Counted from the first letter of the stretch, positions 1,813-60,172 are shown. The stretch: 64,000 nucleotides of DNA from Nitrosopumilus sp. (GCA_965204345.1 OZ241981.1:192001-256000), one strand, 5' to 3'. The notes: generated by a model not told the origin, from the letters alone. Numbers and translations are program-made.

Positions 1813-1838
1813 GAGGTAATGTTTAATTTGCAGTGTTA

Positions 1839-7265: not shown

Positions 7266-7568
7266 TCCAGAATTTAAAAAGTTCTGACCTTGACTCTATT
7301 TTTTTAGTCTAGGCTGCCTGCTGTATGATTGCTCCTTTTTCATCTGTCTTTTCTCATTTCTGATTTTTTTTATTACGTCTTATTTCCAAATGAATTTCCA
7401 GCGTCAATATACCTATTTTTGGTTCAGATGATTCCTTTGCAACAATGACTGCTGCCTGCTTTACCTGTAAACATTTACAACAAGCCCATTTTTTTTAACT
7501 TTGTACAAAGCCTGTTCCCGAGATTTTTTTAGCGTCACTCTTTGTTTTTCATTGTTTTCAATGACAGA

Positions 7569-7886
7569 TTAGCTGGTTTCTATTTTAATTTCAGTATTGC
7601 ATATGGGATTTTTCCCTGTATCATTTTTGACTTTTTGAATTAATTCCAATTGCAATTCTCTTGGATTTTCAATAAACACCCTTTGGTATGACGATGTCTT
7701 TTGTTTGCATTTGTTTCCTTCAAATTCATCATCCACATACTTTGCAAAGGTCTCCTCAAGATTGTTTGATTCCCCTATGTATATTGGATCCTTGTTTCTG
7801 TTGTACAGGACATATACTCCGGCATTTGGTTTTACAAATTTTGCACTGTCCGTCCAAACCCGCATCTTGTCATCTAGTAATTCCAT
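7569..7886 (-). CDS. GIY-YIG-like domain protein
   Basis: GVYVLY...IYIGES and C-terminal P.CN. Confidence 0.7.
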   Translation of the reverse strand: MELLDDKMRVWTDSAKFVKPNAGVYVLYNRNKDPIYIGESNNLEETFAKYVDDEFEGNKCKQKTSSYQRVFIENPRELQLELIQKVKNDTGKNPICNTEIKIETS

Positions 7887-7985
7887 ATGATAACTAATTT
7901 GGACTAGATATTAAACTAGATTGCAAAAATCGTGATATTACAAGAACCTTCATGCTTTTAATACTGAATATATGTAGATGTAATC

Positions 7986-9665
7986 CTGTCTCTGCTAGAA
8001 AAATTCCCGGATCAGTTTACACCTAGAGATATCCAAAAAGAGATCCTCTCTGAGATTGAGGAAAAGTTAAAGTCGGGATTTAAGAAAATAATCCTTTGTG
8101 CTCCTACCGGAGTCGGAAAATCCCTCGTAGGTGCAACTGTTTCTAATTATTTTGACAGTTCTTTTACCGTGACTGCATCAAAGCATCTTCAGGATCAATA
8201 CATCAAGGATATTCCATTTTTAAAACCAGTTAAGGGAAAGCAGAACTTTCCTTGCCTCAAACTAATGTCTGCTGAAAAAGTAGACGATGACAAAAGTGCC
8301 CTAAGGGGGGGATTGACTTGCGACAAGGGCCAGTGCCAAGAGCGGACTGTTAAAAATGGCAAGGATGTTTTTGAATCCTGTAAATTCAAGCCTACCATTA
8401 GGCAGGTTGAGGATAATGCAACTGATGCTACCTCGTGTCATTATTATCTGCAAAAATATGAGGCTCTTGCATCAAAGCATTCCCTGTGGAACTATCATGC
8501 ATTTTTTACAATAATGAAATTTAACAAGAAACTCTTTGAGGAATACCTGGATAGAAAGATAACCGTGTTTGATGAGGCACATAAGATTGAAGATCAGATT
8601 ATCCAGTTTGTCGGATTTGACATCTTTGCCAGCCAGATAGATGAGTGCGACCTAAGCTCTGAAAAGTATGACTTTGCTGATTTGGATTCGATGATAAAAT
8701 TAACTGAGGATATGGCTTACTCGTATGCCAAAAAGATTAGGGATATCAAGCAAAGCGCCCTCTTTCAGAACAGTCCTGATTACAAATTGATTACAAGCCT
8801 GGAACGCCGTTATGACCGTTCTGCACAGGCAAAAATCGACATCATGTCTGATAAAAATAACTTTGTGGTAAATGACCCCGTCAAAGACTTGGATGGTAAT
8901 TTTAGAATTATCTCTGTTAAACCAATCGATGTTTCAAAATTTGCAAGCTCCTTTTTTGAAACTGATTATCAGATTTTCATGTCTGCCACCATTGACAAGT
9001 CCAGTTTTTGTGAAAATATGGGGTTATACCCTGATGATGTTGCGTTTGTTGATACCCCAAGATCCCCCTTCCCCATTGAAAACAGGAAAGTTGATCTTCT
9101 AAACATTAAAAGGCTAAGCTACGGCTCTACTGAAGAGGACGAGCTTGAGGTAATCAGAGCCATTGACAGAATAATGAATGAGCATTCTGATGAGCGCGGC
9201 TTAATTCTGACTTCCTCCATTCCCAGGTGCAAAAAAATTATCAGACATCTTTCTCCCAAAAACAAGCAAAGGACTAGGCTATGTCATAGTAAAAATCAGG
9301 ACGGGAAAACACAGGATGAGATAATTTCAGAGCATGCATCAGACCCTGCCGGAGTCTTGCTTTCTTCCTCGCTTTGGGAGGGCGTTGATTTGAAAGATGA
9401 CCTGTCTAGATTTCAGATTATAGCAAAGGTTCCCTATCCCAACTATACTGAAAAAAGAACCAGAACAAAAATGAACAAGTTCCCTTTGTGGTATACCTCC
9501 CAAACCCTCACCAAAATTTTGCAGGGATTTGGACGTTCAATCAGAGGCGATGCTGATTGGGCCAAAACATATGTTTTGGATACTGCGGTAAACAATGTTT
9601 TTTTCAAAGGGCAGCAGATGATTCCAAAGGCATACCATGATGTATTGGGAATGGACGAGATCTGA
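7986..9665 (+). CDS. DinG/XPD-like SF2 helicase (helicase C2 domain); probable CTG start
   Basis: In-frame extension upstream of 8169 carries TPRDIQ (Q motif) and APTGVGKS (Walker A); DEAH, SAT, EGVD, QGFGRSIR motifs. Confidence 0.85.
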   Translation: MSLLEKFPDQFTPRDIQKEILSEIEEKLKSGFKKIILCAPTGVGKSLVGATVSNYFDSSFTVTASKHLQDQYIKDIPFLKPVKGKQNFPCLKLMSAEKVDDDKSALRGGLTCDKGQCQERTVKNGKDVFESCKFKPTIRQVEDNATDATSCHYYLQKYEALASKHSLWNYHAFFTIMKFNKKLFEEYLDRKITVFDEAHKIEDQIIQFVGFDIFASQIDECDLSSEKYDFADLDSMIKLTEDMAYSYAKKIRDIKQSALFQNSPDYKLITSLERRYDRSAQAKIDIMSDKNNFVVNDPVKDLDGNFRIISVKPIDVSKFASSFFETDYQIFMSATIDKSSFCENMGLYPDDVAFVDTPRSPFPIENRKVDLLNIKRLSYGSTEEDELEVIRAIDRIMNEHSDERGLILTSSIPRCKKIIRHLSPKNKQRTRLCHSKNQDGKTQDEIISEHASDPAGVLLSSSLWEGVDLKDDLSRFQIIAKVPYPNYTEKRTRTKMNKFPLWYTSQTLTKILQGFGRSIRGDADWAKTYVLDTAVNNVFFKGQQMIPKAYHDVLGMDEI

Positions 9666-10301: not shown

Positions 10302-11975
10302 TTAGGGGCTTGCTGTGGTAATTGCACCCTGTGCTGCTGAACCCACCAATGTTGCGTATTTTGCAAGAGCTCCTGATGTGTAGTTGGGTTCTGGACGTAT
10401 CCATTTCTGCCTTCTTTTTGCCAGCTCCTCTTCTGAAACATCGATATCGATAACTGTGGTTTTAGTATCTATTGTAATTTTGTCTCCATTTTGCACTAGT
10501 GCAATAGGTCCTCCGATATATGCCTCTGGTGCAACATGTCCCACCATGAATCCTCTAGTTCCTCCTGAAAACCGCCCGTCTGTGACCATTGCCACTTTTT
10601 TGCCCAAACCCTGTCCCACAAGAGCGGCAGTAGTTGCAAGCATTTCCCTCATGCCCGGTCCCCCCTTTGGCCCCTCATACCTAATCACCACAACATCTCC
10701 CTCTTGCACATCTCCCTTGGATACTGCATCAAATGCGTGTTCTTCTCTGTCATAGACTTTGGCCCTGCCTGTAAATCTGGTCATCTCTACTCCTGCAGTC
10801 TTAATCACTGCTCCCTCAGGTGCAAGGCTTCCCTTGAGTATCACTGCCGTTCCTACCGGGTGTATTGGATTCTCAACGGGCCTTATGATTGACTGCTCAG
10901 GCTCTGATATGTTCATTGCGTCAAGATTTTCTTGCATCGTTTTGCCTGTGACTGTAATGCAATCCACGTTTAGCAGCCTTTTGTCTGCCAACTTTTTTAG
11001 CACAAAGGGAATCCCTCCAATTTTGTCTAAACTGTTCATCACATAATTTCCGCCCGGCTTCATGTCTGCAATGTGTGGCGTCTTTTTTCTAATTCGTTCA
11101 AAGTCATCATAAGTCAGCTTGATTCTTGCTTCATTTGCCATTGACAGCAAATGCAGTATGCCGTTTGTTGATCCTCCAACTGCATTTAACATGACAATGG
11201 AGTTCTCAAAGGCCTCATATGTCATGATATCCCTCGGCCTGATGTTTGATTCTAATAGTTTTGCACATGCAGCACCGGTATCGTAGACCATCTTGCTGCG
11301 TCTGTCATCTTCTGCCGGGGGACTTGCACTTCCGGGCAATGCCAGTCCAATGGCTTCTGAAATTGATGCCATTGTATTTGCCGTAAACATTCCCCCGCAC
11401 GAGCCCGAACTTGGGCATGCGGTATTTTCAATATTTTTTAGCATCTCCAGGGATATCTGGCCTGCATCATATGCTCCTACTGCCTCATACACATCTACGA
11501 CAGTCAGTTCCTTGCCATCTAGGATTCCGGGCATTATTGTTCCCCCATAAACAAACACTGACGGCAGGTTCAATCTGGCCATTGCCATCATTGTACCTGG
11601 CAAACTTTTGTCACATCCTGCAATTCCTACAATTCCGTCGTATTGATGGGCCCTAACCATAAGTTCTATGGAATCTGCAATGACCTCCCTGGAAATTAAG
11701 GATGATTTCATGCCTTCGTGACCCATTGCAATCCCGTCACTTACTGCAATTGTTGAAAATATTCTTGGGGTTGCACCGTTTTGTCCAACCCCACGCTTTG
11801 CTTCTTCGGCCAATGCAGGCAATAATATGTTGCACGGTGTTGCCTCATTACCTGTGTGGCAAACGCCAATGAAAGGCCTACTGAGATCATCATCATCTAG
11901 TCCCATGGCCTTGTACATTGCCCTGTGCGGCGAACGAGCCGTCCCTCCTACAACATTCTGACTGGATATTTCCAT
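10302..11975 (-). CDS. ilvD: Dihydroxy-acid dehydratase
   Basis: [38 protein letters not shown] motifs. Confidence 0.97.
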
Positions 11976-14530: not shown

Positions 14531-16448
14531 CAAAGCTCATCTCCCAAAATGTTTCCAAGCAACTCTAATTTTTTGATAAACTTTGCATAGGTTTGTAAAT
14601 TTTCATAATCGATCAAGTTAGATCTTTTCATCGTTGCAAACATTCGTCGTAGTTCTAATTCGTCTAATTGGCCATGATACTATGTGTTTCATTTACTAGA
14701 TCAAGAAATGCTTTTTCAGGGGTGGCTATTGTGGAGCCCCTAATTACTGCATATTCTCTTATGGCGATAACTCTTTTAGTAGTAGGTATTTTTAGGAATA
14801 TCCCCAGTACCTTTCTATCTGATGCATGTATTACGTCGAATTTTTGGTGAAATTTATCTGCCAATAATTCTGCAAGATATTCTCCCTTTGCAGGCTCTGT
14901 GTAAAGTGTATAGGTTAGTTTTCCACGCAAGTTATGCAGGTACGGGGTGAGTGTAGTTAACGCAGTAAACTGGAATTTGAATCCAAAGTTTTCTTTGAGA
15001 TGGTCATGAACTTCAATTAATTCATCTGTTAATTTGTAATTTGGTATGTTGGGAATGCCAACTTCTCGGTCTCTAAAAATCTCTTTTTTATTACTTTTTT
15101 CTGACCATGTATTTAGAAATCCTTTGATATCCTGATTTCTTTTTTCCAATAATTTTTCAAAGTTTGGATTTTCTCCAAGCAATTTTATTTCTGAGGCAAT
15201 TATGCCAATGAGAAACAAGGGGTTTTTTACAAATCTAAATGAATCATCATCTTTGTTTATCGTTACTTTGATGTCTGAATTATTTTTTTCTATAATGTAC
15301 AAGGGCTTGTTTTTAAGTGATTTTATGCCTATTTCTACCAAATTACCGCCTATTTTCATTTCAAAAGGCTCTGTGTTATCTAGCAGTTCCTGTGAAACCT
15401 GAGAACGTACGCTGCGTTCTAGATGTTGTGCTGAAGAATTCTTATTAAAATAAGCAAAGACGGATTCAACAGATACTGTGCTTTCACTTTTAGATTTTGA
15501 TGATTGTATTGTTTGCTTGAATGCAGGTGATAACTTAAAAGCATTAACTGCTTTTTTATATTCTGAACTTTCTTCAATGAAGGCACTCTTGCTGAAATTT
15601 ACAGGAACATGGTCCATATTCAATTCTCCAACTATCTTGGCATTTTCCGGATGTGCGGGAAATCCAAATTTTTCAAATGCTTTTATCAGCCTTCCATGCC
15701 TAAACAAATGCATTCCATAATCTCCCTTTATCGAACGTTTCTTCAATAATGCAACATAACCACTAATTTTTTTTCCAAATCCTAATTCAAGCTGAATGTT
15801 TTTTTTACTTTCTTCTACAATATTTGGCTTTTTAGGTTTGCAAAATACACTATTGATTTGGATTGAAACTTGGTTTGTTTCCAAGTAAGGAAAATAACGT
15901 ATGCCAAAACTTTCTTTGAATTTTGAAACTTGGTTTGGGTATAACGGCACGTTCAACTCAGAAATTATAATTCTTGTTCCATGCCAGTCTTCTCTTTCTT
16001 CTGTTAGAGTTTTTTCAGTAATGACAAAATTTCTCCAGTTTTGCGCTTTATCAGATAGCCAATTTTTTTCATCATATTCTGTACGATATTCTTTGTTGGA
16101 GTTAATTTTAGATGTAGTAACAGTGAATTTTTTTCCTAATGCAGAACATGCACTTTTCATTCCAATTCCAAATTGTCCCAATTCATCGTCAGCTTTTGTC
16201 CCCTTTGCAATAGTCATTGCATTTGTCAGATCTTGCTTATCCATTCCATTACCATTGTCTCTCACTTCGATCCATTTTTCTTGGAAATCCAAATGAACTT
16301 TGATTGTTCCTTTTTCATCAGAAATTCTAGCATCTATAGAATTATCTAACAATTCGGCAACTGCTTGTTCTGTTCTATATCCGGCAAAACCCAATTTTTG
16401 GACAAGTGATTTGTCTGGTGTGATATCTACCTGAATATTGCTATCCAT
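14530..16448 (-). CDS. GHKL (HATPase_c_3/MORC-like) ATPase fused to an AbiEi-like C-terminal domain; frameshift near 14670
   Basis: ELLDNSIDA, DNGNGM, GQFGIGMKSA, GT motifs; C-terminal IATPEKAFLDL; alternative frame continues DELELRRMF...GDEL* and its TGA overlaps the AbiEii ATG. Confidence 0.8.
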
Positions 16449-16464
16449 ATAAAAAGAACTTAAA

Positions 16465-16572
16465 TCTAGAATTAAAGGCTTTTTCTAGATATATGCTCAT
16501 ATTGAGCCTGCATGCATTAGATATACAAATTGTATACATTTTATATGTCTAGAAAATGCTCATTTTTCTAGA
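16465..16572. promoter_or_regulatory. Two 25-bp inverted-repeat operator-like sites, TCTAGAA-N11-TTCTAGA
   Basis: 16465-16489 and 16548-16572, directly upstream of the ATPase start. Confidence 0.6.
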
Positions 16573-16928
16573 TTTAAATTCATTAGTTAAATACTAAATT
16601 TTTAAAGTAATATCTAAACAAGTCAAAAGACCATGAATTAAAGGCTCTGTCTATCTTTATTGAAAGTGTTGATCCTTGATCGATATTGTTGTTGACAAGA
16701 TATCTTTGTATCGCCCATCAAATGACATTCTATGTGGGTTGCAAGGAAGGATTTATTCATGATTTTGTGTGGTTTGAGATATTATCCTCAAAAAGATGCA
16801 TGCATTGTGGGCAAGAAGAAAGATGAAAAGTCTTTTGGATTCGCATTCTACACCTAAATTGTGCCTGTTCCTCAAAAAATCCTTCTGACTAGTCAAAACA
16901 ATAAATAAAATTACAAAATGCTATCTTT

Positions 16929-17333
16929 ATGGGTTGTATTTTTTGTGATATTTTGGATGAAAAACGCGAGGGTCATTTTATTTATGAAGATGATTCACAT
17001 GTTGCATTTTTAGATAAATATCCCATTGATGTGGGTCACAGTCTAGTAATTCCACGAAAACACCATGAGCGAATCACCGATATGGACTCCCAAGACGTTG
17101 GGCGCCTGTTTGCAATAGTTCCAAAAATTGCAAAGGCCGTCTTAGAAGCTGCCGGGGCAGATGCCTTTAGTCTTGGTCAAAATAATGGCCGTGCAGCCAA
17201 ACAGATCATCCCTCATGTCCACATCCATATCATCCCCCGCTACAATGCCAAAGGGACTGTGTGGACAAAACGTCAAATTGCAGATGGCGATGAGCTTGTA
17301 AAACTAGCTGCTAGAATTCGTAGTCTTACTTAG
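16929..17333 (+). CDS. HIT family hydrolase
   Basis: CIFC and HVHIHIIPR. Confidence 0.95.
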   Translation: MGCIFCDILDEKREGHFIYEDDSHVAFLDKYPIDVGHSLVIPRKHHERITDMDSQDVGRLFAIVPKIAKAVLEAAGADAFSLGQNNGRAAKQIIPHVHIHIIPRYNAKGTVWTKRQIADGDELVKLAARIRSLT

Positions 17334-18606
17334 AATGGCCTGGGTTGTACCTTAAAATCGCTCCAATTTTTCCCAGACTTGCCAGATTGTTTCCATGCTC
17401 TGCACTTCCTGAAATAACCTCTAGTTGAGTACCCACCTTTGCTGCAAGTAGTTCCAAATAATCTACAATGTCTTGTTCACTTGTCTCTACTTCCATTGCG
17501 TTACATTCAGGACATGGCTTGTTGGCATATTCTGTTTTTTTTGGAATAACTAGGGGCCTTTCTACTATCTCTTCTTGGATATGATTACATCGTTTGCACT
17601 TGCCCTCAACTCTGTGCAAGTTAGTGTTATCTGTAATTAACAAAATACTGACTACGTTATTTTTTAGGTATTCTATGACTTCTTGCAATCCGTATGATCC
17701 TTTTCCCGTGTTGGTGTTTATCTCACGAAACAAATCTTCGACTAATTTTTTCTCTTCTACCATTCTGAAACTTCCCAAGATATCTGATGATTTTTCAAAT
17801 GCTTCCCTAATTCCTTCTGATCCCGAATATGATGCATCAATCGTGCTGATGATGTTATTTTGCAATCTGTATTCCAAATAATTACCGTTGATGAAATCCT
17901 CTTTTGTAGGACCAGGACCCGAAATTATCAGTCCTTTGACCGGATAAATATCGATAAAAAATTCTCTTGTCGTTTGTGCAACCCTGTTGTAAAAATAATT
18001 TAATTCCATCTCTCTTAATTTCTGGAATCTTTTTGCAGATTGTCCTCCTTGCCTGTGCTTTCCTGCTACCCCTGACCCCGTATGATCTAACACTTCGATC
18101 TTATCCCCCTGCAGCAATCCCCATCCTGCGTCTTTTGCATCTATTGCTAAAAATCCTATAAGATTGTCGTCTTTTAGCATGTCTTTGAGAATATCTACAT
18201 GAAAATGATCATCGCATCGGTACAGATACTGATTCAAGTCTTTAGGAGGATCAACTTCCCATACTGTAACTACTTCACTTCCTAGTGGTCCCCCTTCTTC
18301 TGGAGGCAATGCCCCGCAGAACATCACCAATCCTCTCTCTGGAGTTTTCTTGTATAGTTTTAGCCTTTGTACAACTTTTCCTAGGGAATCTACCACATGT
18401 GATCTTGTGAGATCTGATTTTATGTTATCTGCCGTACCCTGTTCCTGTTGAAGCGAACTGATTATTTCATGTAGTTGCTTTCCCTTTGGAATATACACCG
18501 TAATAAGCTCTGTGCCTCTGCCTGATTTTTTTGATAATTCCTCAAGCGTTTTTCTGATTTTGTAGAGTTTTACTGAATCCTGTTTCTCTATGTTAATTTT
18601 GCCCAT
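17326..18606 (-). CDS. prf1: Archaeal peptide chain release factor aRF1
   Basis: NIKS, YRCD, GGQS motifs. Confidence 0.97.
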   Translation of the reverse strand: MGKINIEKQDSVKLYKIRKTLEELSKKSGRGTELITVYIPKGKQLHEIISSLQQEQGTADNIKSDLTRSHVVDSLGKVVQRLKLYKKTPERGLVMFCGALPPEEGGPLGSEVVTVWEVDPPKDLNQYLYRCDDHFHVDILKDMLKDDNLIGFLAIDAKDAGWGLLQGDKIEVLDHTGSGVAGKHRQGGQSAKRFQKLREMELNYFYNRVAQTTREFFIDIYPVKGLIISGPGPTKEDFINGNYLEYRLQNNIISTIDASYSGSEGIREAFEKSSDILGSFRMVEEKKLVEDLFREINTNTGKGSYGLQEVIEYLKNNVVSILLITDNTNLHRVEGKCKRCNHIQEEIVERPLVIPKKTEYANKPCPECNAMEVETSEQDIVDYLELLAAKVGTQLEVISGSAEHGNNLASLGKIGAILRYNPGHSK

Positions 18607-18850
18607 TTGTGTTTTTATTCATATTTGCAAATATTAATTGATTCACTTGCAACTCATCAAATGTTTCTAAGAAATACCTCTGTGGCTGGTTTCCTCAAAT
18701 TTTGATAGTTTTTTATTCACAAGACCAAAAATCCGTATGAGTCATGTACTAAATCTGAACATTTGACCTGCAATAGAGTCATGTGTTGGTGATTTTCAGG
18801 CAGACAGAATCCAATTAAAACAGGGGCAAATGCCCGATTCTAACATCTGA

Positions 18851-19849
18851 TTATTGGTAGTAGGCATTTTTGACAGGTTTGATATCATCTTGGCCAGACG
18901 GAAATTCGGTATCTGAGAGATATACAAACCCGTTATTAATTGACGTGTATGCTACGGCTGATACAAGACCGTGAGATCGTGACATCTTAAAATATCCATA
19001 GTCATACGTGTCCTCCCCTGAAAGCAGGCTAAGATCATATACATGGCCGGAACTCGACCTCGCATGGTCATCAGCATCATAGACTATATCTTTCAAATCA
19101 TTTATTTTCATCTGAAAAGTTAATGGTGATTGGTTGTATTTGATATCAGGAATATACATGCCCTGAGTAATTCTGAGTGGTTTATAGTCGTCATTTATGT
19201 AGATATGGCCTTGTTCTAGACCCCCACCCATTGCCTCATAATTTGTAGGATAGTTGATGTCAAAGTCGGTATCACAGTTATGATCCCAGAATTCATCAGT
19301 TCCATATTGTGAAGGATATATCAAGCGTGAGGCGTTAACATAAGTATCCCAGTATTCTTTATTGTTTATTGGATCTTCTACAAATGAAAACGATGCAGTG
19401 ACATTGAACACTTCGCCAACTCTGACTTTGTTTGGAATCTCAAGGGTTATCTCATTTTGGAAAAGGCAGTGAGAATGCCAACTCAGTGGACCCAATTTAA
19501 TTGATTCAGGGATTGGTGGTAACGGTGATTTGATTGTAATTATTTGAGGGACAAACTCGCCTGGTTCTTCTTTCATGATTGCTTTATCTGTCTTTGCTGA
19601 TTCCTCCAAGACTGCTTTCCATCCAGTCCTATCAAGCATCTTGATGGACGTATCCAAAGTTACGCAGACGGGTCTTTCGCTTTGTGACCATGTCATAATT
19701 TTCTCACCATTGCACATGATCTTCTCCAACTGCACGTTGTCTTTGAGCTGTTTTAGAGGAGGATGAAGATATTCAGATTCTGCCAGTGCAGGCACTAATG
19801 TCATTACTGCTGCCAGGATTGCAAGTCCCAACAGTGTCGCTTTGATCAT
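18851..19849 (-). CDS. Secreted thaumarchaeal protein with PPLKQ..C..P.CV domain
   Basis: Signal peptide; domain similar to 5147..6511. Confidence 0.7.
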   Translation of the reverse strand: MIKATLLGLAILAAVMTLVPALAESEYLHPPLKQLKDNVQLEKIMCNGEKIMTWSQSERPVCVTLDTSIKMLDRTGWKAVLEESAKTDKAIMKEEPGEFVPQIITIKSPLPPIPESIKLGPLSWHSHCLFQNEITLEIPNKVRVGEVFNVTASFSFVEDPINNKEYWDTYVNASRLIYPSQYGTDEFWDHNCDTDFDINYPTNYEAMGGGLEQGHIYINDDYKPLRITQGMYIPDIKYNQSPLTFQMKINDLKDIVYDADDHARSSSGHVYDLSLLSGEDTYDYGYFKMSRSHGLVSAVAYTSINNGFVYLSDTEFPSGQDDIKPVKNAYYQ

Positions 19850-36656: not shown

Positions 36657-37214
36657 TTGCATGCAAACAAAAAGCCAAAGATTAGAAATGTGGTGTGTAC
36701 TGCCGATCTTAAGCAAAATGTGAATGTCCCCAAACTATCAAAACTGTCTTGTGGAATCTATGATCAGGCAATATATGGGGGGCGGTGTGGTTATGTCAAA
36801 ACCCCAGATATGGAAGGCAAAGTCACCATATTTCCTAGTGGAAAGATGATCTCAGTTGGTGCCAAATCTACAACAAATGCAGTCAAACAGCTCAACCACG
36901 CAAAATTTCTTCTAGTTCAGGAAAAATTGATTTCAGACATTAAATTAAAACCCAACATAAGAAATATTGTTGCGACCATAGATGTTGGGCATATCATACC
37001 AATAGACAAACTATCACTCAGCATTTCTGGTTCAATTTATGAACCTGAAACTTTTCCTGCACTTATTGTGAAGGGGCTAGATAGTTGTAGTTTTCTTGTG
37101 TTTGCCTCAGGAAAGATAGTGATTGTAGGTGCAAAATCTGTAAAAGAGACAAACACTTCATCATTTGAGTTGTTACAAAAACTGAATAGTTTTATGAAAC
37201 ATGAAAAAGATTAA
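36657..37214 (+). CDS. tbp: Divergent TATA-binding protein paralog
   Basis: Two TBP repeats: NVVCT...IFPSGKMISVGAKS and NIVAT...YEPETFPAL...VFASGKIVIVGAKS. Confidence 0.85.
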   Translation: MHANKKPKIRNVVCTADLKQNVNVPKLSKLSCGIYDQAIYGGRCGYVKTPDMEGKVTIFPSGKMISVGAKSTTNAVKQLNHAKFLLVQEKLISDIKLKPNIRNIVATIDVGHIIPIDKLSLSISGSIYEPETFPALIVKGLDSCSFLVFASGKIVIVGAKSVKETNTSSFELLQKLNSFMKHEKD

Positions 37215-38124
37215 TTCTGTATTTACTAACCTTCACATTAATTTTTAGCAGTTATAAAATTATGCTATTTTAGTTTCTAAACTAATCAAATGTTGTCTTT
37301 TCTATATCACATGAAATCATCTAGATGTAACGCATGTACAGTATGATTTGGATTTAAAGTTGAACATCAGCAAAGAGATGTGGATTCTCTCATCAAATTA
37401 GTTCTTTAATTTTATTACTAATAAAGTTCTGTTAGCAGAAATATGATTTTTTCAGTATCTAATTTGTGGATTATTATTTTGTCTTATTCCTTTTATAAAA
37501 TTCTTATTTCTCCTGACATTAATTTTGGTAAAAGCGAATCTCGAATTTGCATCAGATTAGATATCTGTTTATAATTATTTTTTATTTCTTTAAATAATAT
37601 CTTGAGAATATTTTCTAATTGTGACTGAGTTTTTTGCTTAGGAAGTACAAACTTCAGATTATACATATTATTTTGATTTATTTTTGGCTGTACCGCTCCC
37701 GTTACAATATGATTTACATTCGTATTTTTTAGATAAACATACAATAATTCATTAGATATTTTTTTCCCTTTCAAAACATGAGCATGATTGTTTACCCAGA
37801 ATTTTTCCCAAACATATTGTAAAATTGGATGCCCTTTCTCATCGATGACTGAACCGTCCTCACCCATCAAAACATAAGTCCCATCAAAAATAAAATCATC
37901 AACATAATCTAAGATCTTAGTTGCACCATAATAGGGATAACATCCTTTTTTGGCAAGTCTTTCAATACTTGATAAGGGAATTCGTTTAGAATCAAAATTT
38001 TTTACAACTTCTTTTAATTTCTTTACTTCCCAGCCCTCAGGTATTTCTATCCCTAATTCTTCATTGTAAACCATCTTTCCTCCTGATGATTTGTATGGAT
38101 TATCTTTTTCATTTGGAAATTCAT

Positions 38125-38185
38125 AGTCAACAAACCATGATTTGAAGACTATGCAAACAAGTCAACAAACCATGATTTGAAGACT
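38125..38185. repeat. 26-bp direct repeat (38125-38150 / 38160-38185) with 9-bp spacer; candidate recombination core site
   Basis: agtcaacaaaccatgatttgaagact x2. Confidence 0.92.
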
Positions 38186-38226
38186 GTCTGGGCGATTTGT
38201 TCGAGGATTTTGTTCTGTTTTTGAAG
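38160..38226 (-). repeat. Left arm of ~67-bp inverted repeat (partner 45584-45649)
   Basis: Reverse complement matches 45584-45649 except A5 versus A4. Confidence 0.95.
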
Positions 38227-38740
38227 GTTTTCTATTGTCGTGTCAAGTGCATCTAATTTAGCAATAATTTTGTCTTGTTTATCTAAAGGAGGTAAATGGA
38301 TTTTAATTTCATCAAAGGTTGACATAGTAATTGTATCAAATACAGTTCCATTGGAAATTTGGGTATACTTATTTTTCAGATTTTTTAAAATATAAAATAA
38401 GTAAAGAGGTCTGACGGATTTAGGAAAAACTTCTAAAGCATAACATGATTGGTTACAACTCATTTCTGATGGAAGGATGCATAATGATCCAACAGTTCCC
38501 CTAGATGAGATAATAATAGTATGCTTTTTTAGTACTTTTGCAGAACTATTGCTAATTCCTTCTGATGTTATTTTTCTTTCGGTATCATAAATATACCTAC
38601 CATTAATTTTTGTGATATCTGTTGGAGTTATCCATTTGATATTTCCGTTCCAATATTCTGGTACTGATGTTTTTGGTGTGCCACTTAAAATTATTTTACA
38701 CATTTCAGAAAGTTTCTTACTGTTTAATTCTTGAATCGGT

Positions 38741-41700
38741 TTAACTGTCAAATCCAACCTCTTGATAATTATTTTCCGTCTGTTGCATAATCACAGGAAT
38801 CACTTTTTCAATCTCGTCAGTTGGGAAATCTTCTTTTATTAATATTTTAGTTACTCCAACTCGAATTTCGGCTTTGACTTGTTCTTGATTTAACCAATCA
38901 ATCTTTAGATTTTTCTTCAGATAATCAACAACATCTATTGCAATCTTTCGTGCATCGATGTCATTTTCCAGATATTCTCTGCCCATCCTAATGATATCAT
39001 AAAATGCAATTTCCTCATTAGTCATTTCTAGTTCATCCGTTCTTTTTGACTCATCAGTAATATCAGATGCTACCTTTTCAAATTCTGGATATAGTGTGTC
39101 AAAATCTTCAAATTTTCCATGATACCTTGATAATGTCTTTTCAATTCTTTCCTGGAAAGTCTTTTGTTTTGAGATATTCCCTTTTAGTCGCGCCTTAATT
39201 GCATCATCAAGTAACTTGTATGCCAATTCCATCTTGAGATTTTTTTGGGAAAATTTCTTTATCTTTTCCATGTATTCCTTGTTTAGATCAATTTTTTCAT
39301 CATCGTACTTGATGTCATAAAATCGAATATTCTCATCAGCATCAATTGCCTCTTCCACCAAATCCCGGATTGCATCTTCCTTTTCAGGAGGTGTGTAAAG
39401 TATTCCTGCGACTGATTTTGACATGATTCTACGCATTAGCTGGAAGAATCTCAAATCATCTTCTACTTCCTGGCATGCCGGATGTGGCGTACACACAGCA
39501 TATGCTTTGGTCAGTTCTGCAACATTTTTTATGAATTGCTTTCGAACTTCTTGATCATCTAGAATTTCTTCTATTGCATCATCAAGGTATGAGCCTTGTC
39601 TTCTCTGTGAATACGGTTTGTCAACCCCAATATCTACAGTAAAAAAGCTACATAATTCCAAGTGCTTCTTTTGCATGTACAAAACAATCTCCTCAGTTGG
39701 TATCATTGCGCCCCTAACATCGGATTCATTATATGATCGAAACGCAGATTTTAAATCATCAGTAATTCCAATATAGTCAATAATCATTCCACGTGGTTTG
39801 TCCTTGTGAACGCGGTTGACACGGGATATTGCCTGGATTAGGTTATGGTCCCGTAGTAGTTTGTCCACATACATTGTATGTATTACAGGTGCATCAAATC
39901 CTGTCAGATACATGTCACAAACAATTAGTAATTCCAAATCACTGTTTTCATCTTTGAACTCTCTTACCAATTCTTCCATTTCAGATTTTGATTTGTAATG
40001 TTTTGATACTGTTTGTTCTCTATTCTTTTTTTCTTCAGATGCATCATCTGCAAGTGGTTTTGCTAACCCGGAAATCACACAAGTACATTTTGGAGCATCA
40101 GGAATTTGAGAAATTAAATCAGCATATCGAGCAGCTGCTAGTTTTGTTGATGTTGCAAGCATGGCCTTTCCTTTGAGTGTTTTTTGTTTTTCTTTAAAGT
40201 GACAAACCAAGTCTTTTGCAATTACCTCTAGTCTGTCAGGATCCTCCAGCATTGTTTTTAGCTCGGACCATTTTTTTGAAAGGGACTCTATTACATCAGG
40301 ATCTAAATCTTCTGTAATCTTATTAAAATCAGCACCAATCATTTTGTTTTGCAAGTGGAGTTGGACTAGTCTGCTTTGACAGGTAATTTCTACAGTGGCC
40401 CTGTCTCGTACTGCATCGCTAATTCTGTAGGCAGAGAGAACATCTCCAAATACGTGCGTAGTTGACTTGTCTTCTTTCTCAATTGGCGTGCCTGTGAAGC
40501 CAATTTTAAGCGCATTTGGAAGTGCTCTTTGCAGGTTTTGAGCCATGGTCTTGTACTGTGAGCGGTGTGCCTCATCAGCTATTATGATGATGTTTCTCCT
40601 CTCAGAAATTAATGGATATTTTACCATCCCTTCTTTTTCGTCTTGTGTTGTTTGGAATTTCTGAATTGTTGTAAATATTATCTTTCCAGCCGGAACTGCC
40701 AACTTTTCTCTTAAATCAACTATGGAATCAGCTTCCAACATTGCAGTCTTTGGTTTTGGATATGGAAATCCTGCAACCTTGAAGAAATTTCCCAGCTGGC
40801 CATCCAAATCCTTTCTATCAGTTAGGATTACAAAGGTTGGATTTTCCAATTGTTTTATTTGAGAAACAATATTTGTATACAAAATCATTGTTAGTGATTT
40901 ACCACTGCCTGTTGTATGCCAGATAACACCAATTTTATTATCTCCACTTTGTGGATAAACTTCTAATGTTCGTTTAACTGCTGCCTTAACTCCGGTGTAC
41001 TGGTGTTGTTGTGCAATTTTTTTAATTGTTTTACTTCCATCTGATTCGTATTCAGTGTAGTTTTGAATTATTTCCAATAATGATTCTTTGGTTAACATTA
41101 GATGTTGCATCATCTCTAATCTGTTTGCAACTGTCTTGTCAGGATCTTCAGGGTCATTCCAATCTGAAAATCTTTCAAAGGGCGCAGTCATTGTTCCATA
41201 TCTTGCATATATTCTATCGCTGATTATCAAAAATGAAACATAGTTGAATAGACGAGGGATAAATTTTTGATAGTTAGTAATTCCCAGTTGCTTGTATGCT
41301 GAAACAATATCAGTTGATGAGTTTGTTGGATCTTTGTACTCTAAAAGAACCAAAGGCAACCCATTTACAAATATAATGTGATCTGTCCGTCTTTGTTCAT
41401 GTTGCTTAATGATTAGTTGCCTAACTGCCAAAAAGTCATTGTTTTCTGGAACCTCAAAGTCTACTAGTTTTATGGCATAGTATCTGGTCTGACCCTCTGA
41501 TTGATATGGCACCTTGACACCTGCAAGCAGCATTTGGTGAAACTCTCGATTGTTTTCTATCGTAGTTGGATTTGTCAGTGATTTTACCTGGTTTATTGCA
41601 GTTGTGTAGACAGTTTCAGGTAAATTTGGGTTTAATTGACGGATTTTTGTGCCTAACCGGTCTAGTAAGAGAACGTCACTGTAGTTTTTTCGCTCATTGT

Positions 41701-41800
41701 TTAGATCAGTTCCTTCCAATATTTCGTAACCCAACTCTTCGAATGTCTTATGAGCTGGTAGTTCAACTAATTCAATCTCATTTAGTTCTGATGGGGACAT
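38741..41800 (-). CDS. hsdR: Type I restriction endonuclease subunit R
   Basis: D.IIFVNGLPLVLLEYK, WHTTGSGKS, DEAH, FTGTP, LTGFD, QAISRVNR. Confidence 0.96.
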   Translation of the reverse strand: MSPSELNEIELVELPAHKTFEELGYEILEGTDLNNERKNYSDVLLLDRLGTKIRQLNPNLPETVYTTAINQVKSLTNPTTIENNREFHQMLLAGVKVPYQSEGQTRYYAIKLVDFEVPENNDFLAVRQLIIKQHEQRRTDHIIFVNGLPLVLLEYKDPTNSSTDIVSAYKQLGITNYQKFIPRLFNYVSFLIISDRIYARYGTMTAPFERFSDWNDPEDPDKTVANRLEMMQHLMLTKESLLEIIQNYTEYESDGSKTIKKIAQQHQYTGVKAAVKRTLEVYPQSGDNKIGVIWHTTGSGKSLTMILYTNIVSQIKQLENPTFVILTDRKDLDGQLGNFFKVAGFPYPKPKTAMLEADSIVDLREKLAVPAGKIIFTTIQKFQTTQDEKEGMVKYPLISERRNIIIIADEAHRSQYKTMAQNLQRALPNALKIGFTGTPIEKEDKSTTHVFGDVLSAYRISDAVRDRATVEITCQSRLVQLHLQNKMIGADFNKITEDLDPDVIESLSKKWSELKTMLEDPDRLEVIAKDLVCHFKEKQKTLKGKAMLATSTKLAAARYADLISQIPDAPKCTCVISGLAKPLADDASEEKKNREQTVSKHYKSKSEMEELVREFKDENSDLELLIVCDMYLTGFDAPVIHTMYVDKLLRDHNLIQAISRVNRVHKDKPRGMIIDYIGITDDLKSAFRSYNESDVRGAMIPTEEIVLYMQKKHLELCSFFTVDIGVDKPYSQRRQGSYLDDAIEEILDDQEVRKQFIKNVAELTKAYAVCTPHPACQEVEDDLRFFQLMRRIMSKSVAGILYTPPEKEDAIRDLVEEAIDADENIRFYDIKYDDEKIDLNKEYMEKIKKFSQKNLKMELAYKLLDDAIKARLKGNISKQKTFQERIEKTLSRYHGKFEDFDTLYPEFEKVASDITDESKRTDELEMTNEEIAFYDIIRMGREYLENDIDARKIAIDVVDYLKKNLKIDWLNQEQVKAEIRVGVTKILIKEDFPTDEIEKVIPVIMQQTENNYQEVGFDS

Positions 41801-41835
41801 TTTGATTTACATATTGGATCAGATTCAATCATAAT

Positions 41836-43182
41836 TTAAGTTTGAGTTGTTTTTATTTTTGTATTTTCTAGTACAGATAAAATGGTATAAAGAATGTTTT
41901 CTAGTCGTAAGAGGTGGCTTTGATGCTGGTTCATATCTTTTTGAATGCTACATACTGAACGTTCAATGAATGTCAAATTACATGGTTTGTCATTTACAGT
42001 CTTGTTATTCTGTGTGGTAGAATGTTTCTTACATGAATAGTTGGTAGAGCCTGTAAGGAGATTTATTCTCTCAGATGCTTTTGAGAATTCGTGGATGCTT
42101 GATTCAGGATATAATACAAATTGTTTTTCGTAACTATCCTTTGGACTGTGTCCTATTATGTGATCTGCAACATCTGGCCTGCATCCTGAATCAATAAGTG
42201 TTGATTTGAGAAGATCTCGCATTCGATGTAATCTGTATTGATTTTTGGTCTGAAGGTTTGGCACATGGTTTTGTAGTTTGGATCTTGCAGCCAACTTGCG
42301 AAATCTTTTGTATATCCAGTTAACTGTGATTGGATTTCCCTCCGTATCTACAAACAACGCATTGTCAATTTTGGGTTTATCCTGTCTTGTCTTTAGATAT
42401 TCAGTTATTGCTACAACTGCATCAACATCAAGAAATCCCGTATGCATGAATCCTGTCTTTACCCTGACAAGTGGAATAGGAATCGGTGTGTTATTCAAAT
42501 TCCATGATTCGGGATTCTCAGATCTAAAATGCTTGAGAAGGCACTCCCATACCTCAAAATTAAATCTGTCTACCAGTGTTGAACTATCTAGTCCTCTCTG
42601 AAACTTGCACAAAAGTACAGCTTTCTCTATTGGCTGTATGTCATTGACGGTTAGAATTCCCCAAAGATCTTCAATGGTAAACAATTGATCATGATGTTTT
42701 TTCTCATTTCTGTTGATTCTGTGTTTGAATTGAAACGTAATGTCGGACTCATTTTCCCTAAAAAATGATCTGATGGAATACATGGCAATTTTTGTAGTGG
42801 ATTGTTTTCTTACAGATAACATTTCTGCCAGGTATTTCTTGATCAAGTGTGCAAAATCTGCCTTGTTGGCATAGTCTTTTCTGCTGAGCTCAAGCAAATG
42901 TTCTATTCCTGCAAGTTGTGTAATGGTTTTATGCTGTTGCAAGATGTTTGTATCTACTTGTATCGGTACAACAAACTGAAATTCCTTGTTTAAAAGCCAC
43001 TTGTGAAATCCCAATAATCCATATGTGTATGCATCCCTTGTACCGCCATGTCGTGATTTACCCTTTATGTTTTTTGTATTGGTACCACTCAACTGCTGTC
43101 TCCAATATTTTACAGATTCAAGTTTACAAAAATCATCAAAAGACATATTTGTATAATTTGGTGTGCCTGCAAGTTTTTTCAA
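41836..43182 (-). CDS. Tyrosine recombinase/integrase
   Basis: RVKT, HRMRD (HxxR), IIGH...Y C-terminal motifs. Confidence 0.85.
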   Translation of the reverse strand: MKKLAGTPNYTNMSFDDFCKLESVKYWRQQLSGTNTKNIKGKSRHGGTRDAYTYGLLGFHKWLLNKEFQFVVPIQVDTNILQQHKTITQLAGIEHLLELSRKDYANKADFAHLIKKYLAEMLSVRKQSTTKIAMYSIRSFFRENESDITFQFKHRINRNEKKHHDQLFTIEDLWGILTVNDIQPIEKAVLLCKFQRGLDSSTLVDRFNFEVWECLLKHFRSENPESWNLNNTPIPIPLVRVKTGFMHTGFLDVDAVVAITEYLKTRQDKPKIDNALFVDTEGNPITVNWIYKRFRKLAARSKLQNHVPNLQTKNQYRLHRMRDLLKSTLIDSGCRPDVADHIIGHSPKDSYEKQFVLYPESSIHEFSKASERINLLTGSTNYSCKKHSTTQNNKTVNDKPCNLTFIERSVCSIQKDMNQHQSHLLRLENILYTILSVLENTKIKTTQT

Positions 43183-43461
43183 GTCATGTCAGACTCTGAA
43201 TCTTTGAATAAAAAATACACTGGCAAAACAAGTGATCATATCAATTATTGTTGGATCTGTTGTTATTTTTTATATTGATATTCTCACAATATATGATTAG
43301 ATATGGGAACTGTATTACTTGATATTTAATTCACATTTGTTTCAACAACCATAATGATTATAATATAGATATGATGGTTTGTTATTGGATAAAATTTGAT
43401 ATGCCAAAACTAATCATGGTAACAGTAGGATATTTCAAAGGGTAAAATATGCAATAAAGAG

Positions 43462-45021
43462 ATGGCAATAAAAAAACAAGATCAGACACTTGAAGACAAA
43501 CTTTGGGATACAGCAGAACTATTAAGAGGAAAGGTATCTCCAACTTCATACAAAGACATTGCATTAGGTTTACTATTTCTAAAATTCATTTCAAACAGAT
43601 ATGATAAAAGACGGGCAGAAATTGAAAAGGAAACCAAGGATTTATCAGAGAAAGAAAGAAAATATCTGCTAAATCTAAAGGATCAGTACACAGCAAAGGG
43701 TGTCTTTTACCTCAAAGAAGGAGATAACTGGAATGACTTGACAAAAATGGCATCAAGTGAGAAAAACCTGGCAATAAAAATTGATGAGATGATTCAGGAG
43801 ATAGAAAACGACAATCCTGACTTGGAAAATGTGCTGCCTAAGGTTTTTGCAGGCTCTGGCATTCCAAATGATAGTTTACAGCAATTAATTGAAACATTTG
43901 ATACGATACCCACTGACGAAATTTCTAAAGATCACTTTGGGCAAATCTATGAATATTTCTTGAGAAACTTTCACAAAAAGATTGGTCAAAAGGGTGGAGA
44001 ATTTTTCACACCAGAATCCATTGTGCAGTTGCTAGTTGAGATTATTGAGCCATATGAGGGAATCATCTATGATCCAACATGTGGTTCAGGCGGAATGTTT
44101 GTGCAAAGCAAAAAGTTTCAGGATGCACACAAAGACAAAAGCAAAAAGGGAACTTCAATTTATGGAGTAGATTCTCAACAAGACATTTGGCGAATTGCAA
44201 AAATGAATCTCACAATGAGGGGAATTGAGGCAAAAAATATCAAAAATGCAGACTGTTTACTGGACCATCCATTTGAAAAAGTAAAGGCAAACCGTATCTT
44301 GGCTAATCCGCCATTTAACATGGGAGAATGGGGACATGAAAAATTAGCCAATGATGCAAGATTTGCAAAGTACGGGATGCCTAGTAATGGAAAACCAGGT
44401 GGAAACTATGCATTCATGTCTCATATGATTCATCATCTGGATGAAAAAGATGGCAAGCTTGGATTGGTATTAGCCAATGGTTCAATGAGTGCAGGTGGAA
44501 AAGAAGGAGACATTAGAGAAAAACTAGTAAAAGATGATTTGATTGATTGTATGATTGCATTACCAACCAATCTGTTTTACACAGTCACAATTCCTGCATG
44601 CCTTTGGTTTATCTCAAAAAATAAAGATGATAAAAAATCAAGAAAAAGAAATGGCGAAACTCTATTCATTGATGCAAGAAAGATTTTTACCCCTGTTGAC
44701 AGGGCACACAATGAATTATCCGAAGAACAGATTCAAAAGATTGCTGGCACTTATCGTTCATTTATCGGAGAGAAGGGACATCCAAAATACAAAGATAAAG
44801 CAGGTTATTGTAAGGCAGTAAAAATTTCAGACATTGAGAAAAACAATTTTGTTCTAACTCCGGGCAGATATGTTGGTGCAGAAGAGATTGAAGATGACGG
44901 AGAGCCATTTGAAGATAAAATGAAACGATTGACTACTGAATATGCAAAACTTTCAGAAGAATCTAAGAAATTAGATAAAGAAATTCGTAGAAATTTGAAG
45001 GGGATTGGTTTTGAAATCTAA
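43462..45021 (+). CDS. hsdM: Type I R-M methyltransferase subunit M (m6A)
   Basis: GEFFTP, DPTCGSGG, ANPPF, LTPGRYVG. Confidence 0.96.
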   Translation: MAIKKQDQTLEDKLWDTAELLRGKVSPTSYKDIALGLLFLKFISNRYDKRRAEIEKETKDLSEKERKYLLNLKDQYTAKGVFYLKEGDNWNDLTKMASSEKNLAIKIDEMIQEIENDNPDLENVLPKVFAGSGIPNDSLQQLIETFDTIPTDEISKDHFGQIYEYFLRNFHKKIGQKGGEFFTPESIVQLLVEIIEPYEGIIYDPTCGSGGMFVQSKKFQDAHKDKSKKGTSIYGVDSQQDIWRIAKMNLTMRGIEAKNIKNADCLLDHPFEKVKANRILANPPFNMGEWGHEKLANDARFAKYGMPSNGKPGGNYAFMSHMIHHLDEKDGKLGLVLANGSMSAGGKEGDIREKLVKDDLIDCMIALPTNLFYTVTIPACLWFISKNKDDKKSRKRNGETLFIDARKIFTPVDRAHNELSEEQIQKIAGTYRSFIGEKGHPKYKDKAGYCKAVKISDIEKNNFVLTPGRYVGAEEIEDDGEPFEDKMKRLTTEYAKLSEESKKLDKEIRRNLKGIGFEI

Positions 45022-46281
45022 AACTATTCGAGAGTTTAAAGAAACTGAAATTGGTAAAATCCCTACAGATTGGGAAGTAAAAAAATTGGAAGAATTACTT
45101 TTTATCAAAGGCAGAATAGGTTGGAAGGGATTAAAAAAATCTGAATTTGGAAAAGAAGGAATAATCATTATCAACGGTCCTCAAATAAAAAATAATAAAG
45201 TAAATTGGAATCAGTGTTTACGAGTTCCTAAATGGAGATATGATGAATCACCGGAAATATCTGTTAAAGAAGAAGATATTCTAATGACCAAAGATGGCAC
45301 AATTGGTAAAACAGCTTATATTGAAAACATTCGTGAATCTGCTACTTTAGCTTCTGGAATATTTTTAATCCGAAGTATTTCTGAAAAACTAGATCAGCGT
45401 TTCCTTTACTTGTATTTTAATTCTCAATTTTTTAGCAAATTAGTAGAAAGTAGAATTGAAGGTTCTGTCATTCCTCATCTTTATCAACGTGATATTATAC
45501 AACTTTCTATTCCTTTACCCTCAATTTCTGAACAACAGTTGATTGCAAAAATCATCTTAAATATTGATTCAAAAATTAAAAATCTTCAAAACAGAACAAA
45601 ATCCTCGAACAAATCGCCCAGACAGTCTTCAAATCATGGTTTGTTGACTATGACGGGATAACCGAGTTTGAGGATTCGGAGCTGGGTAAAATTCCAAAAG
45701 GATGGAAAGTAGTTAAAATTGGTAGTATATGTAATACATTTGGAGGAGGTACACCATCTACCACAAATCAAGATTATTGGAATGGATGCATTCATTGGCT
45801 TGTTCCACGAGATCTTACTAATTCAGATAGATTATTTTGTACATCTTCTGAAAGAAAAATCACTGAATTAGGATTAAAAAATTGTTCATCACAATTACAT
45901 CCTGAAAATTCAATTTTCATGACGTCGAGAGCTACTATAGGCGCATTTACTATTAATCGAATACCACTAGCTACAAATCAAGGATTCATTGTAATGAGAC
46001 CAAATAATCCAAATCATCTGTATTACCTATTTCTTAATTTTGTTAGTAGAATTGATGAATTTATCAATCATGCAAATGGTAGTACTTTTTTAGAAATTAG
46101 TAGAGGTGATTTTAGACAATTATTAATTGTTATTCCTCCTTCATCAATTCTAGATATATTTCATAATAAAATAAAACCGTTATTTGAGAATAGGTTTGTT
46201 AATGAAAAAAAAATTACGTCTCTTACAAAACTACGTAATATCTTACTGCCAAAACTAATGTCAGGAGAAATCAGAGTATAA
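45005..46281 (+). pseudogene. hsdS: Type I R-M specificity subunit HsdS-B, frameshifted by 1-bp loss in an A tract at 45588-45591
   Basis: Adding one A gives NLQKQNKILEQIAQTVFKSWFVDYDGITEFEDSELGKIPKGW... open to LLPKLMSGEIRV*. Confidence 0.9.
45584..45649 (+). repeat. Right arm of inverted repeat; contains 26-bp core at 45624-45649
   Basis: cttcaaaacagaacaaaatcctcgaacaaatcgcccagacagtcttcaaatcatggtttgttgact. Confidence 0.95.
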
Positions 46282-46921: not shown

Positions 46922-47024
46922 TTTTGAGACAAAACTGTTTCACGTAAATTTAACACATTTACTGGATGTGACTTTGAGGGTTTTTGATAATTTTACAGAA
47001 AATTCAGATCACATAAATTTAACA
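46922..47024 (-). repeat. Dispersed ~103-bp repeat, inverted copy of 60026-60129
   Basis: Manual alignment, roughly 85% identity; two TGTTAAATTTAyGTGA boxes. Confidence 0.85.
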
Positions 47025-47066
47025 TCTTTACTGGATGCACTCATCTCCAAATTATTGAGATAGTAT

Positions 47067-60004: not shown

Positions 60005-60172
60005 TACGTGACATAGAGTTTTCACTGTTAAATTTACGTGATCTAAATTTTCTCCAAAATTATCAAAAATTCCCAAAATTCACATCCAGCAAAGGTGTTA
60101 AATTTACGTGACATAGTTTTGCCTCAAAATCTAGCTCAGATACAGGTGTTAAATTTACGTGACATAGTTTTG
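60005..60172 (+). repeat. Cluster of TGTTAAATTTACGTGA boxes (60026, 60096, 60147)
   Basis: 28-bp ggtgttaaatttacgtgacatagttttg identical at 60094 and 60145. Confidence 0.9.

Follow-up and report, generated by a model that had tools for sequence, protein, structure and literature searches.

Host-associated bacteria offer well-documented cases of programmed hsdS inversion. Inverting hsdS loci served by tyrosine invertases are well known in bacteria (PMC7672463, PMC4948785, PMC7394358), and for one invertase clade Huang et al. 2020 describe inversions predicted mostly to truncate HsdS, giving ON/OFF switching (PMC7672463). For archaea, Milman et al. scanned bacteria only, as their study is described in PMC9881135, the word 'archaea' does not occur in the main text of Atack et al. 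(PMC7394358), and chromosomal invertons are called minimally investigated in Archaea in a report listing 42 archaeal data sets, none of them thaumarchaeal (PMC10028968). A full-text literature search returned no published programmed hsdS inversion in Nitrosopumilus or other archaea; the supplementary tables of Atack and Huang, which lay outside that search, may list archaeal loci. Here we analyze a Type I restriction-modification (R-M) locus on a 64,000-nucleotide stretch of Nitrosopumilus sp. DNA (GCA_965204345.1 OZ241981.1:192001-256000, the whole of which is called the window), in which two oppositely oriented hsdS genes, hsdS-A and hsdS-B, enclose hsdR, a tyrosine recombinase gene and hsdM. 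We consider it probable that hsdS is switched by inversion at this archaeal locus and that the stop cassette within it can be relocated. The evidence consists of sequences, repeats, reading frames, sequencing reads (for a run of five A and for a short filler) and conservation across species, from which we infer the inversion, its catalysis by the recombinase and the activity of a half-subunit.

The locus resembles the bacterial 'epigenetic invertons', such as SpnIII/ivr with CreX/PsrA (Huang 2020, PMC7672463; Atack 2020, PMC7394358, as presented there), in its oppositely oriented hsdS genes, in the identical inverted repeats placed within conserved hsdS segments, in the tyrosine recombinase encoded in the locus and in the predicted outcome, which is new combinations of target recognition domains (TRDs). 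It differs from them in its host, a free-living or sponge-associated ammonia-oxidising archaeon, and in that both hsdS genes are complete operon genes, one after hsdR and one after hsdM, with no promoterless silent cassette. The segment predicted to flip is the whole 7.4-kb enzyme core including the recombinase, and one arm has a tandem crossover core with a 9-nt stop filler, again unlike the bacterial invertons. The SpnIII-type layout, with one expressed hsdS and a silent 5′-truncated partner (an asymmetry noted in PMC9881135), was not found at the window locus.

The tvr locus of S. pneumoniae (SpnIV, with TvrR), as described by Kwun et al. 2018 (PMC6265443), likewise has its recombinase inside the moving segment, and excision of a circle can shorten tvr, resembling two remnant loci that we found in other genomes of the genus (G322 and G371). 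However, tvr works by excision and reintegration at direct repeats (PMC6265443), whereas the repeats here are inverted and excision is suggested only by these two remnants in other species. Direct repeats flanking TRD cassettes and a recombinase, as in tvr, were not found at the window locus, where the arms are inverted and the sole direct pair is formed by two cores 35 bp apart.

In the hsd loci of Mycoplasma pulmonis, two inverted hsdS genes flank hsdM and hsdR, and inversion flips the enzyme genes together with the hsdS halves, as is proposed for the window locus. Unlike the window recombinase, the M. pulmonis recombinase HvsR is encoded outside the inverted segment, and its sites are of two kinds, vip and hrs. 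We know of no tandem core with a stop filler in M. pulmonis.

The single Type I R-M locus spans 37493-46281 of the window, in the order hsdS-A (-), hsdR (-), tyrosine recombinase (-), hsdM (+) and hsdS-B (+). According to Pfam the Type I gene set is complete, with hsdR, hsdM and hsdS all present, hsdS-B being whole only with the five A (A5) of the reads. The features are as follows, ORF standing for open reading frame.

37493..38757, minus strand: hsdS-A, downstream of hsdR with a 17-nt overlap with the hsdR end; two Methylase_S matches (E 9.7e-31 and 1.1e-19); internal order TRD1a, central conserved region, inner core, stop filler, outer core, TRD2a
38149..38757, minus strand: truncated ORF of 202 aa, TRD1a plus central helix, ending FVDLFA*; candidate half-HsdS (ORF and Pfam)
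37493..38120, minus strand: TRD2a half (YEFPNEKDNPYKSSGGKM...), out of frame relative to the upstream ORF
38125..38150, minus strand: outer-left core, the exact second copy, which together with the next 4 nt matches the right arm
38151..38159, minus strand: 9-nt filler, which with the first two bases of the next core makes an in-frame TAG
38160..38185, minus strand: inner-left core, an imperfect palindrome (20/26 self-complementary) with arms AGTCTTCAAA and TTTGTTGACT around TCATGG
38160..38226, minus strand: left arm of the inverted repeat, 67 nt long with A5 in the right arm and 62 nt (38160-38221) with the A4 of the window
38741..41800, minus strand: hsdR, 1019 aa, intact; Pfam HSDR_N, SWI2_SNF2, T1R_D3-like and T1RH-like_C
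41836..43182, minus strand: tyrosine recombinase, 448 aa; PF00589 (Phage_integrase), E 4.1e-8; 35 bp upstream of hsdR on the same strand
43183..43461, no strand: intergenic region between the divergent sets int-hsdR-hsdS-A and hsdM-hsdS-B, defined by gene layout only
43462..45021, plus strand: hsdM, 519 aa, intact; N6_Mtase (E 1e-98) and HsdM_N
45005..46281, plus strand: hsdS-B, with TRD1b, central region, core and TRD2b; frameshifted as written, intact at 425 aa with A5
45584..45649, plus strand: right arm of the inverted repeat, with the right core (45624-45649) at its end
45588..45591, plus strand: run of four A (A4), which is A5 in all contigs from the runs X1, X2 and X5

Each of the four hsdS half-genes matched Methylase_S in Pfam. 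The genes of the hsdS pair, hsdS-A on the minus strand and hsdS-B on the plus strand, have their own start codons and directly follow hsdR and hsdM, respectively; from this gene layout alone, divergent promoters are presumed to lie in 43183-43461. The TRD2a half contains an internal ATG ORF of 193 aa (37493-38074, minus strand). Its ATG, with a GGAGG-like stretch, was considered as an independent start and rejected, SSGG[KE]M being a conserved linker motif that is also found in G371.

Within the codons of the central conserved helix, the otherwise dissimilar hsdS genes share an identical inverted repeat, 38160-38221 and 45588-45649 being 100% identical over 62 nt. At the end of this repeat lies a 26-bp near-palindromic core, AGTCTTCAAATCATGGTTTGTTGACT, which encodes VFKSWFVD. 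Two exact copies of this core are present in hsdS-A (38125-38150 and 38160-38185), and a second inverted pair, 38121-38150 with 45624-45653, is 100% identical over 30 nt. The 35-bp insertion in hsdS-A is composed of the second 26-nt core copy and the 9-nt filler (38151-38159); because of it, the minus-strand hsdS-A reads ...QTVFKSWFVD-LFA* and stops at 38149. In the 2.12-Mb genome (9 contigs), the core occurs in only three copies, all at the locus, with up to three mismatches allowed. No hybrid core (R'-centre-R or L-centre-L') was found in the same genome beyond these three normal cores, and a search for the exact 26-mer elsewhere gave 0 matches in assembled genome contigs.

Reads were analyzed as Logan contigs (k=31) from four runs: X1 and X2, which come from one study of the organism itself, X5, a sponge metagenome from a different study, and X6, a marine metatranscriptome. 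In the window, hsdS-B has A4 at 45588-45591 (CTTCAAAACAG), which shifts the frame, and hsdS-A has A5 at 38218-38222 (CTTCAAAAACAG). All three DNA runs, X1, X2 and X5, contained an extra A behind 45587, and the depth with the extra base equalled the total depth (129.7, 130.6 and 31.7, respectively). The contig with the extra A, 7417 nt long, ends at 45612 and runs into unique TRD1b sequence; the A5 is tied to TRD1b because a k=31 unitig must end at 45612 if the right-arm A5 has a unique preceding base. The A4 of the window would thus have arisen as an error of assembly or consensus, unless it is a variant carried by a minority. Since three DNA runs show A5, the most likely state of hsdS-B in the present orientation is that of an intact 425-aa gene. 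In a separate observation, an X5 contig joins 45705 to 46226, skipping 520 nt, which fits a related strain with a different TRD2 between conserved ends.

The 35-bp insertion was recovered in X1, where a 106-nt contig covers 38121-38226 with 0 differences and where, by arithmetic from contig depths, the filler k-mers stand at ~119x against ~130x for the flanks. An original prediction, made from the window alone, had reported two lesions, a stop at FVDLFA* caused by the insertion in hsdS-A and an A4 frameshift in hsdS-B. The stop is present in the sequence and in the X1 reads, but the frameshift belongs to the window as written and not to X1, X2 or X5. Analysis of X6 showed RNA contigs matching hsdR, hsdM and 45620-45818 (the start of TRD2b) at 100%, which suggests that the locus is transcribed in the sea, DNA carry-over being possible.

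Conservation of the insertion was assessed in Nitrosopumilus-genus genomes, over a set of 151 and over 89 with a completeness of at least 95%. With a looser pattern, the 35-bp-spaced tandem core was found in six of the 89 genomes (the organism's own genome, G274, G291, G322, G370 and G371), while a reversed control pattern gave 0 matches in the same 89. An earlier, tighter tandem-core pattern had matched 5 of the 151 genus genomes, and the tandem-core pattern gave 0 matches in metagenome contigs. The 35-bp core spacing, which is not a multiple of three, is constant in all carriers, and the filler alleles are diverged but homologous: TGTTTGCAT in the window and G322, TGTTTAGCT in G274, G322 and G370, GTTTTAGAT in G291 and TGATCACCT in G371. 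All copies have an in-frame stop directly before the second core (DLFA*, HDLFS* twice, DCFR* and DLIT*), and G370 has a further TGA inside the inner core, then FHDLFS*. Judged by this comparison, the 35-bp insertion is a conserved stop-carrying module in the window and five related species and not damage; because core-filler-core is conserved in related species, the insertion in hsdS-A does not qualify as a lesion. With A5 in three runs and the insertion conserved in 6/89 genomes, the earlier view that both hsdS genes are broken now is not supported.

Four of the loci are complete (window, G274, G291 and G370), each with an inverted hsdS pair, repeats that are 100% identical at the core, and exactly one filler. 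The recombinase is intact in all four, at 425-448 aa, and the copies of G274, G291 and G370 are 55-58% identical to that of the window. The filler is placed in the hsdR-linked hsdS in the window and in the hsdM- or hsdM-fragment-linked hsdS in the other three, as drawn below with arrowheads for gene direction.

Window: [<S-A with filler][<R][<Int][M>][S-B>]
G370: [<S][Int>][R>][M>][S with filler>]; repeats of 110 nt at 100% and 257 nt at 98%
G274: [<R][<Int]...[hsdM fragment>][S' with filler>]...[<S][<M]; a silent-partner layout
G291: [<R][<Int][S1>]...[<S2 with filler][<M]; central region and core identical

The G274 repeats comprise 156 nt at 98%, 97 nt and 69 nt at 100% (with a 35-nt offset) and 29 nt at 100%. 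The hsdR and hsdM of G370 are only 35% and 45% identical to those of the window, and the recombinase, cores and filler are kept nonetheless. Four loci without a recombinase (L016, L019, L021 and L022) are arranged as hsdM-hsdS-hsdR-hsdS on one strand, and identity between the direct repeats in the central regions of their hsdS genes reaches only 88-96%, with repeat lengths of up to 628 nt (L019). Of the 151 genus genomes, 35 gave a recombinase match at E <= 1e-60, G322 and G371 not being among them; a search for close recombinase relatives in assembled genome contigs gave 22 pattern matches, of which 0 were confirmed.

Further integrase genes were observed. The G291 hsdM is split into residues 1-286 and 281-519, ~83 kb apart (L023:8250-10546 and L024:9516-10229), and a gene for a 42%-identical integrase stands directly at the break, which looks like the insertion of an ~83-kb integrative element inside hsdM. 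Elsewhere in the genome to which the window belongs, a second full-length integrase (40% identical) is encoded at C1:1882841-1884007, and a short integrase fragment lies at C1:854354-854545.

In G322 and G371, only two TRD2 halves are present, head to head. The junction between them is a hybrid core, AGTCAACAAA-CCATGA-TTTGTTGACT, composed of right arm, centre and again right arm, after which come one or more fillers and a normal core. Within 10 kb of these remnants no hsdR, hsdM or recombinase gene was found, except for a degenerate short hsdR-like fragment ~1 kb away in G371 (L132). This is the structure that would be expected if the inner core on one side had recombined at its centre with the core on the opposite arm, in an alternative alignment and with loss of the segment between them. 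Since homologous recombination between inverted repeats cannot delete, the remnants point to a site-specific crossover, and from their sequence the junctions are the best available sign that the core acts as a crossover site, probably aided by its near-symmetric centre CATG. No flank synteny was found between the window and the two remnants, so that they do not form a comparable pair of occupied and empty site.

Repeats of other kinds were observed near both remnants. Self-BLAST of G371 (L132) revealed a long tandem array with a 60/120-nt period at ~16400-19800, near the orphan TRD2 pair. G322 (L133) has an ~870-nt repeat in three copies (8257-9127, 10723-11594 and 16186-17058), and two of these, which are inverted, border the head-to-head TRD2 halves at their 3′ ends, so that the remnant as a whole forms a large palindrome.

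Based on these arrangements, a mechanism can be proposed for the window locus. The hsdS genes point outward from a 7.4-kb centre holding TRD1a, hsdR, the tyrosine recombinase, hsdM and TRD1b. The recombinase, encoded at the head of the int-hsdR-hsdS-A set, would synapse the cores of both arms and flip this centre, which would amount to the hsdR-linked and the hsdM-linked gene trading their distal halves, TRD2a and TRD2b. On the arm with the tandem core, crossover at the inner or at the outer copy would determine if the stop cassette remains in place or is transferred to the other gene. Enumeration gives four predicted states, each with one full-length HsdS and one truncated half-subunit made of TRD1 plus the helix. 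The full-length pairing would be 1b/2b now and 1a/2b, 1b/2a or 1a/2a after inversions; in the present state, with A5, full-length 1b/2b would be encoded after hsdM and half 1a after hsdR.

The half-subunit could itself be active as a homodimer on a palindromic site. The truncated S subunits EcoR124I(delta50) and EcoDXXI(deltaC) and the natural NgoAV act as homodimers on palindromes, and Type IC is the only family with reported homodimeric S subunits, according to the account of Loenen et al. 2014 (PMC3874165). At the window locus, the only solved relatives found for the hsdR product are EcoR124 HsdR (Type IC), at E 5e-46, which is a structure match and not a family-level assignment. In the 202-aa ORF, Methylase_S covers residues 12-184; like the EcoR124I, EcoDXXI and NgoAV halves, the product retains its N-terminal TRD together with the central helix and ends ahead of the C-terminal TRD. 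Among solved structures it comes closest to the M. jannaschii S subunit 1YF2 (E 6.6e-52), to each half of which it aligns. Those earlier halves arose by deletion, by transposon insertion or, for NgoAV, by fragmentation of the S gene into several ORFs, whereas the stop here belongs to a conserved 35-bp module between two cores that could move between genes, and the homodimer is putative. A complex prediction for two copies of the 202-aa half (8-row alignment) gave scores of 0.18 and 0.16 against a mark of 0.42, which speaks neither for nor against dimerisation. The half-HsdS idea of the original prediction thus fits the EcoDXXI, EcoR124I and palindromic NgoAV precedents (PMC3874165, in the part dealing with them), and activity of the half in this archaeon stays putative.

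The same prediction had read the locus as a switch that is now OFF, with both hsdS genes inactive, and that one inversion would turn ON by collecting both lesions on one copy and rebuilding an intact HsdS. The window as written does have the hsdS-A stop and the hsdS-B A4 frameshift, and the anticipated product of ~409 aa was recovered, since inverting the inner-left against the right core in a model gave an open 409-aa frame from the TRD1a start to the TRD2b stop, with the junction FKSWFVDYDGITEF. However, one of the two lesions is absent from the reads, A5 being found at full depth in X1, X2 and X5 on a contig continuous with unique TRD1b, and the other is a conserved feature. Such an OFF/ON switch is therefore very unlikely, and a switch between alternative full-length HsdS proteins, each state with one half-subunit, is likely instead. 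Another explanation is that the locus is decaying without programmed switching, its recombinase being a mobile-element relic, its repeats maintained by gene conversion or occasional homologous recombination and its filler an inherited scar. The mobile-element character of most of the recombinase family and the G291 insertion would agree with this, as would the wide distribution of the core as an HsdS motif, the degraded remnants of G322 and G371, the failure to observe inversion in k=31 contigs and the pneumococcal inversions at long repeats that are reported to happen without known recombinases (PMC6620402). Against decay stands the integrity of hsdR, hsdM, the recombinase gene and, once A5 is read, hsdS-B, and the recombinase subclade stays intact beside hsd genes in 4/4 complete loci, even where hsdR and hsdM are distant. 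Repeats that are 100% identical occur only in recombinase-bearing loci, those of loci without it reaching 88-96%, and the remnant junctions fall exactly at the core centre, an outcome that homologous recombination between inverted repeats cannot yield. On balance we regard decay as rather unlikely.

Excision provides a further explanation, compatible with inversion, in which the centre (TRD1a, hsdR, recombinase, hsdM and TRD1b) is an excisable and insertable module. The near-symmetric core centre (CATG) would let inverted cores pair in the other alignment, producing a circle and head-to-head TRD2 'landing pads'. This is the empty-site structure seen in G322 and G371, which retain the filler, have lost the hsd genes and the recombinase within 10 kb save the degenerate hsdR-like fragment of G371, and lie outside the 35/151 genomes with a recombinase match; recombinase-driven excision and reintegration have also been shown for the pneumococcal tvr locus, in the account given in PMC6265443. 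On the other hand, no circle or L-centre-L' hybrid core was found in the organism's own genome, the recombinase phylogeny is decoupled from hsdR and hsdM (G370), so that the centre does not travel as a unit, and the remnants, with flanks that are not syntenic with the window, may be one-off illegitimate deletions. A module of this kind appears quite unlikely.

The preferred reading, an invertible hsdS switch with a relocatable stop cassette, has to be held against several observations that weigh on the other side. The rest of the recombinase family (<=45% identity) resembles integrases of mobile elements. The central 17-mer of the core is found in 101 loci, once in each, spread over many bacterial phyla, and with so wide a distribution the core sequence is for the most part the conserved HsdS motif FKSWF as opposed to a dedicated site. 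Since the fillers of the six genomes share homology, they do not count as six independent events; any 35-nt insertion would truncate the protein, so that the conserved immediate stop is weak evidence of selection. No alternative orientation or inversion joint was seen in the runs, whose k=31 contigs are shorter than the 67-nt repeat and cannot phase the arms, and no RNA contig of X6 falls on the recombinase gene. In X2, a 71-nt contig at depth 266 is made up of the repeat and the 4 nt ATGA directly after it, and no contig covers the filler. Bubble collapse could account for this absence, which neither shows nor excludes polymorphism. A between-sample polymorphism based on these filler-less X2 contigs was also considered and rejected as unproven, since the depth fits either case within noise and contigs collapse bubbles.

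A fuller version of this switch is possible and is put forward only tentatively. In it, the choice between inner and outer core would move the stop cassette in such a way that the cell always has one full-length HsdS (four possible) and one half-subunit (two possible), although both genes lie in expressed operons. Excision of the whole enzyme core may be a further outcome at this near-symmetric core, and would leave head-to-head TRD2 landing pads as in G322 and G371.

Other features were noted next to the locus and elsewhere in the genome. A gene for a TATA-binding-protein paralog at 36657-37214 adjoins the hsd locus and marks the host as an archaeon; such a neighbour recurs in G274, where a stretch resembling this gene lies between the two hsdS (L017:5977-6379). 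Contig C3 of the same genome (10.6 kb) has TRD-like and N6-methyltransferase-like stretches on both strands, at ~1092-2883 (+) and 6915-8159 (-), and may represent either a second system that shuffles specificity or an R-M system carried on a plasmid. A 29-nt repeat (TCACGTAAATTTAACAC...) is present in six genome copies, three of them in the window (46940-46968, 47009-47037 and ~60083-60111), with raised read depth there.

For annotation, the lesson of this locus is that the hsdS-B 'pseudogene' is most likely an assembly error and that the hsdS-A 'pseudogene' is a conserved design. The tandem core with its stop filler would offer a simple means by which, of two expressed specificity genes, just one stays full-length. 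If the proposed switch is true, an abundant marine archaeon would possess a programmed multi-state epigenetic and defence switch, and abundant marine ammonia oxidisers would diversify their restriction specificity and methylome within a population, which would bear on virus-host dynamics in the ocean.

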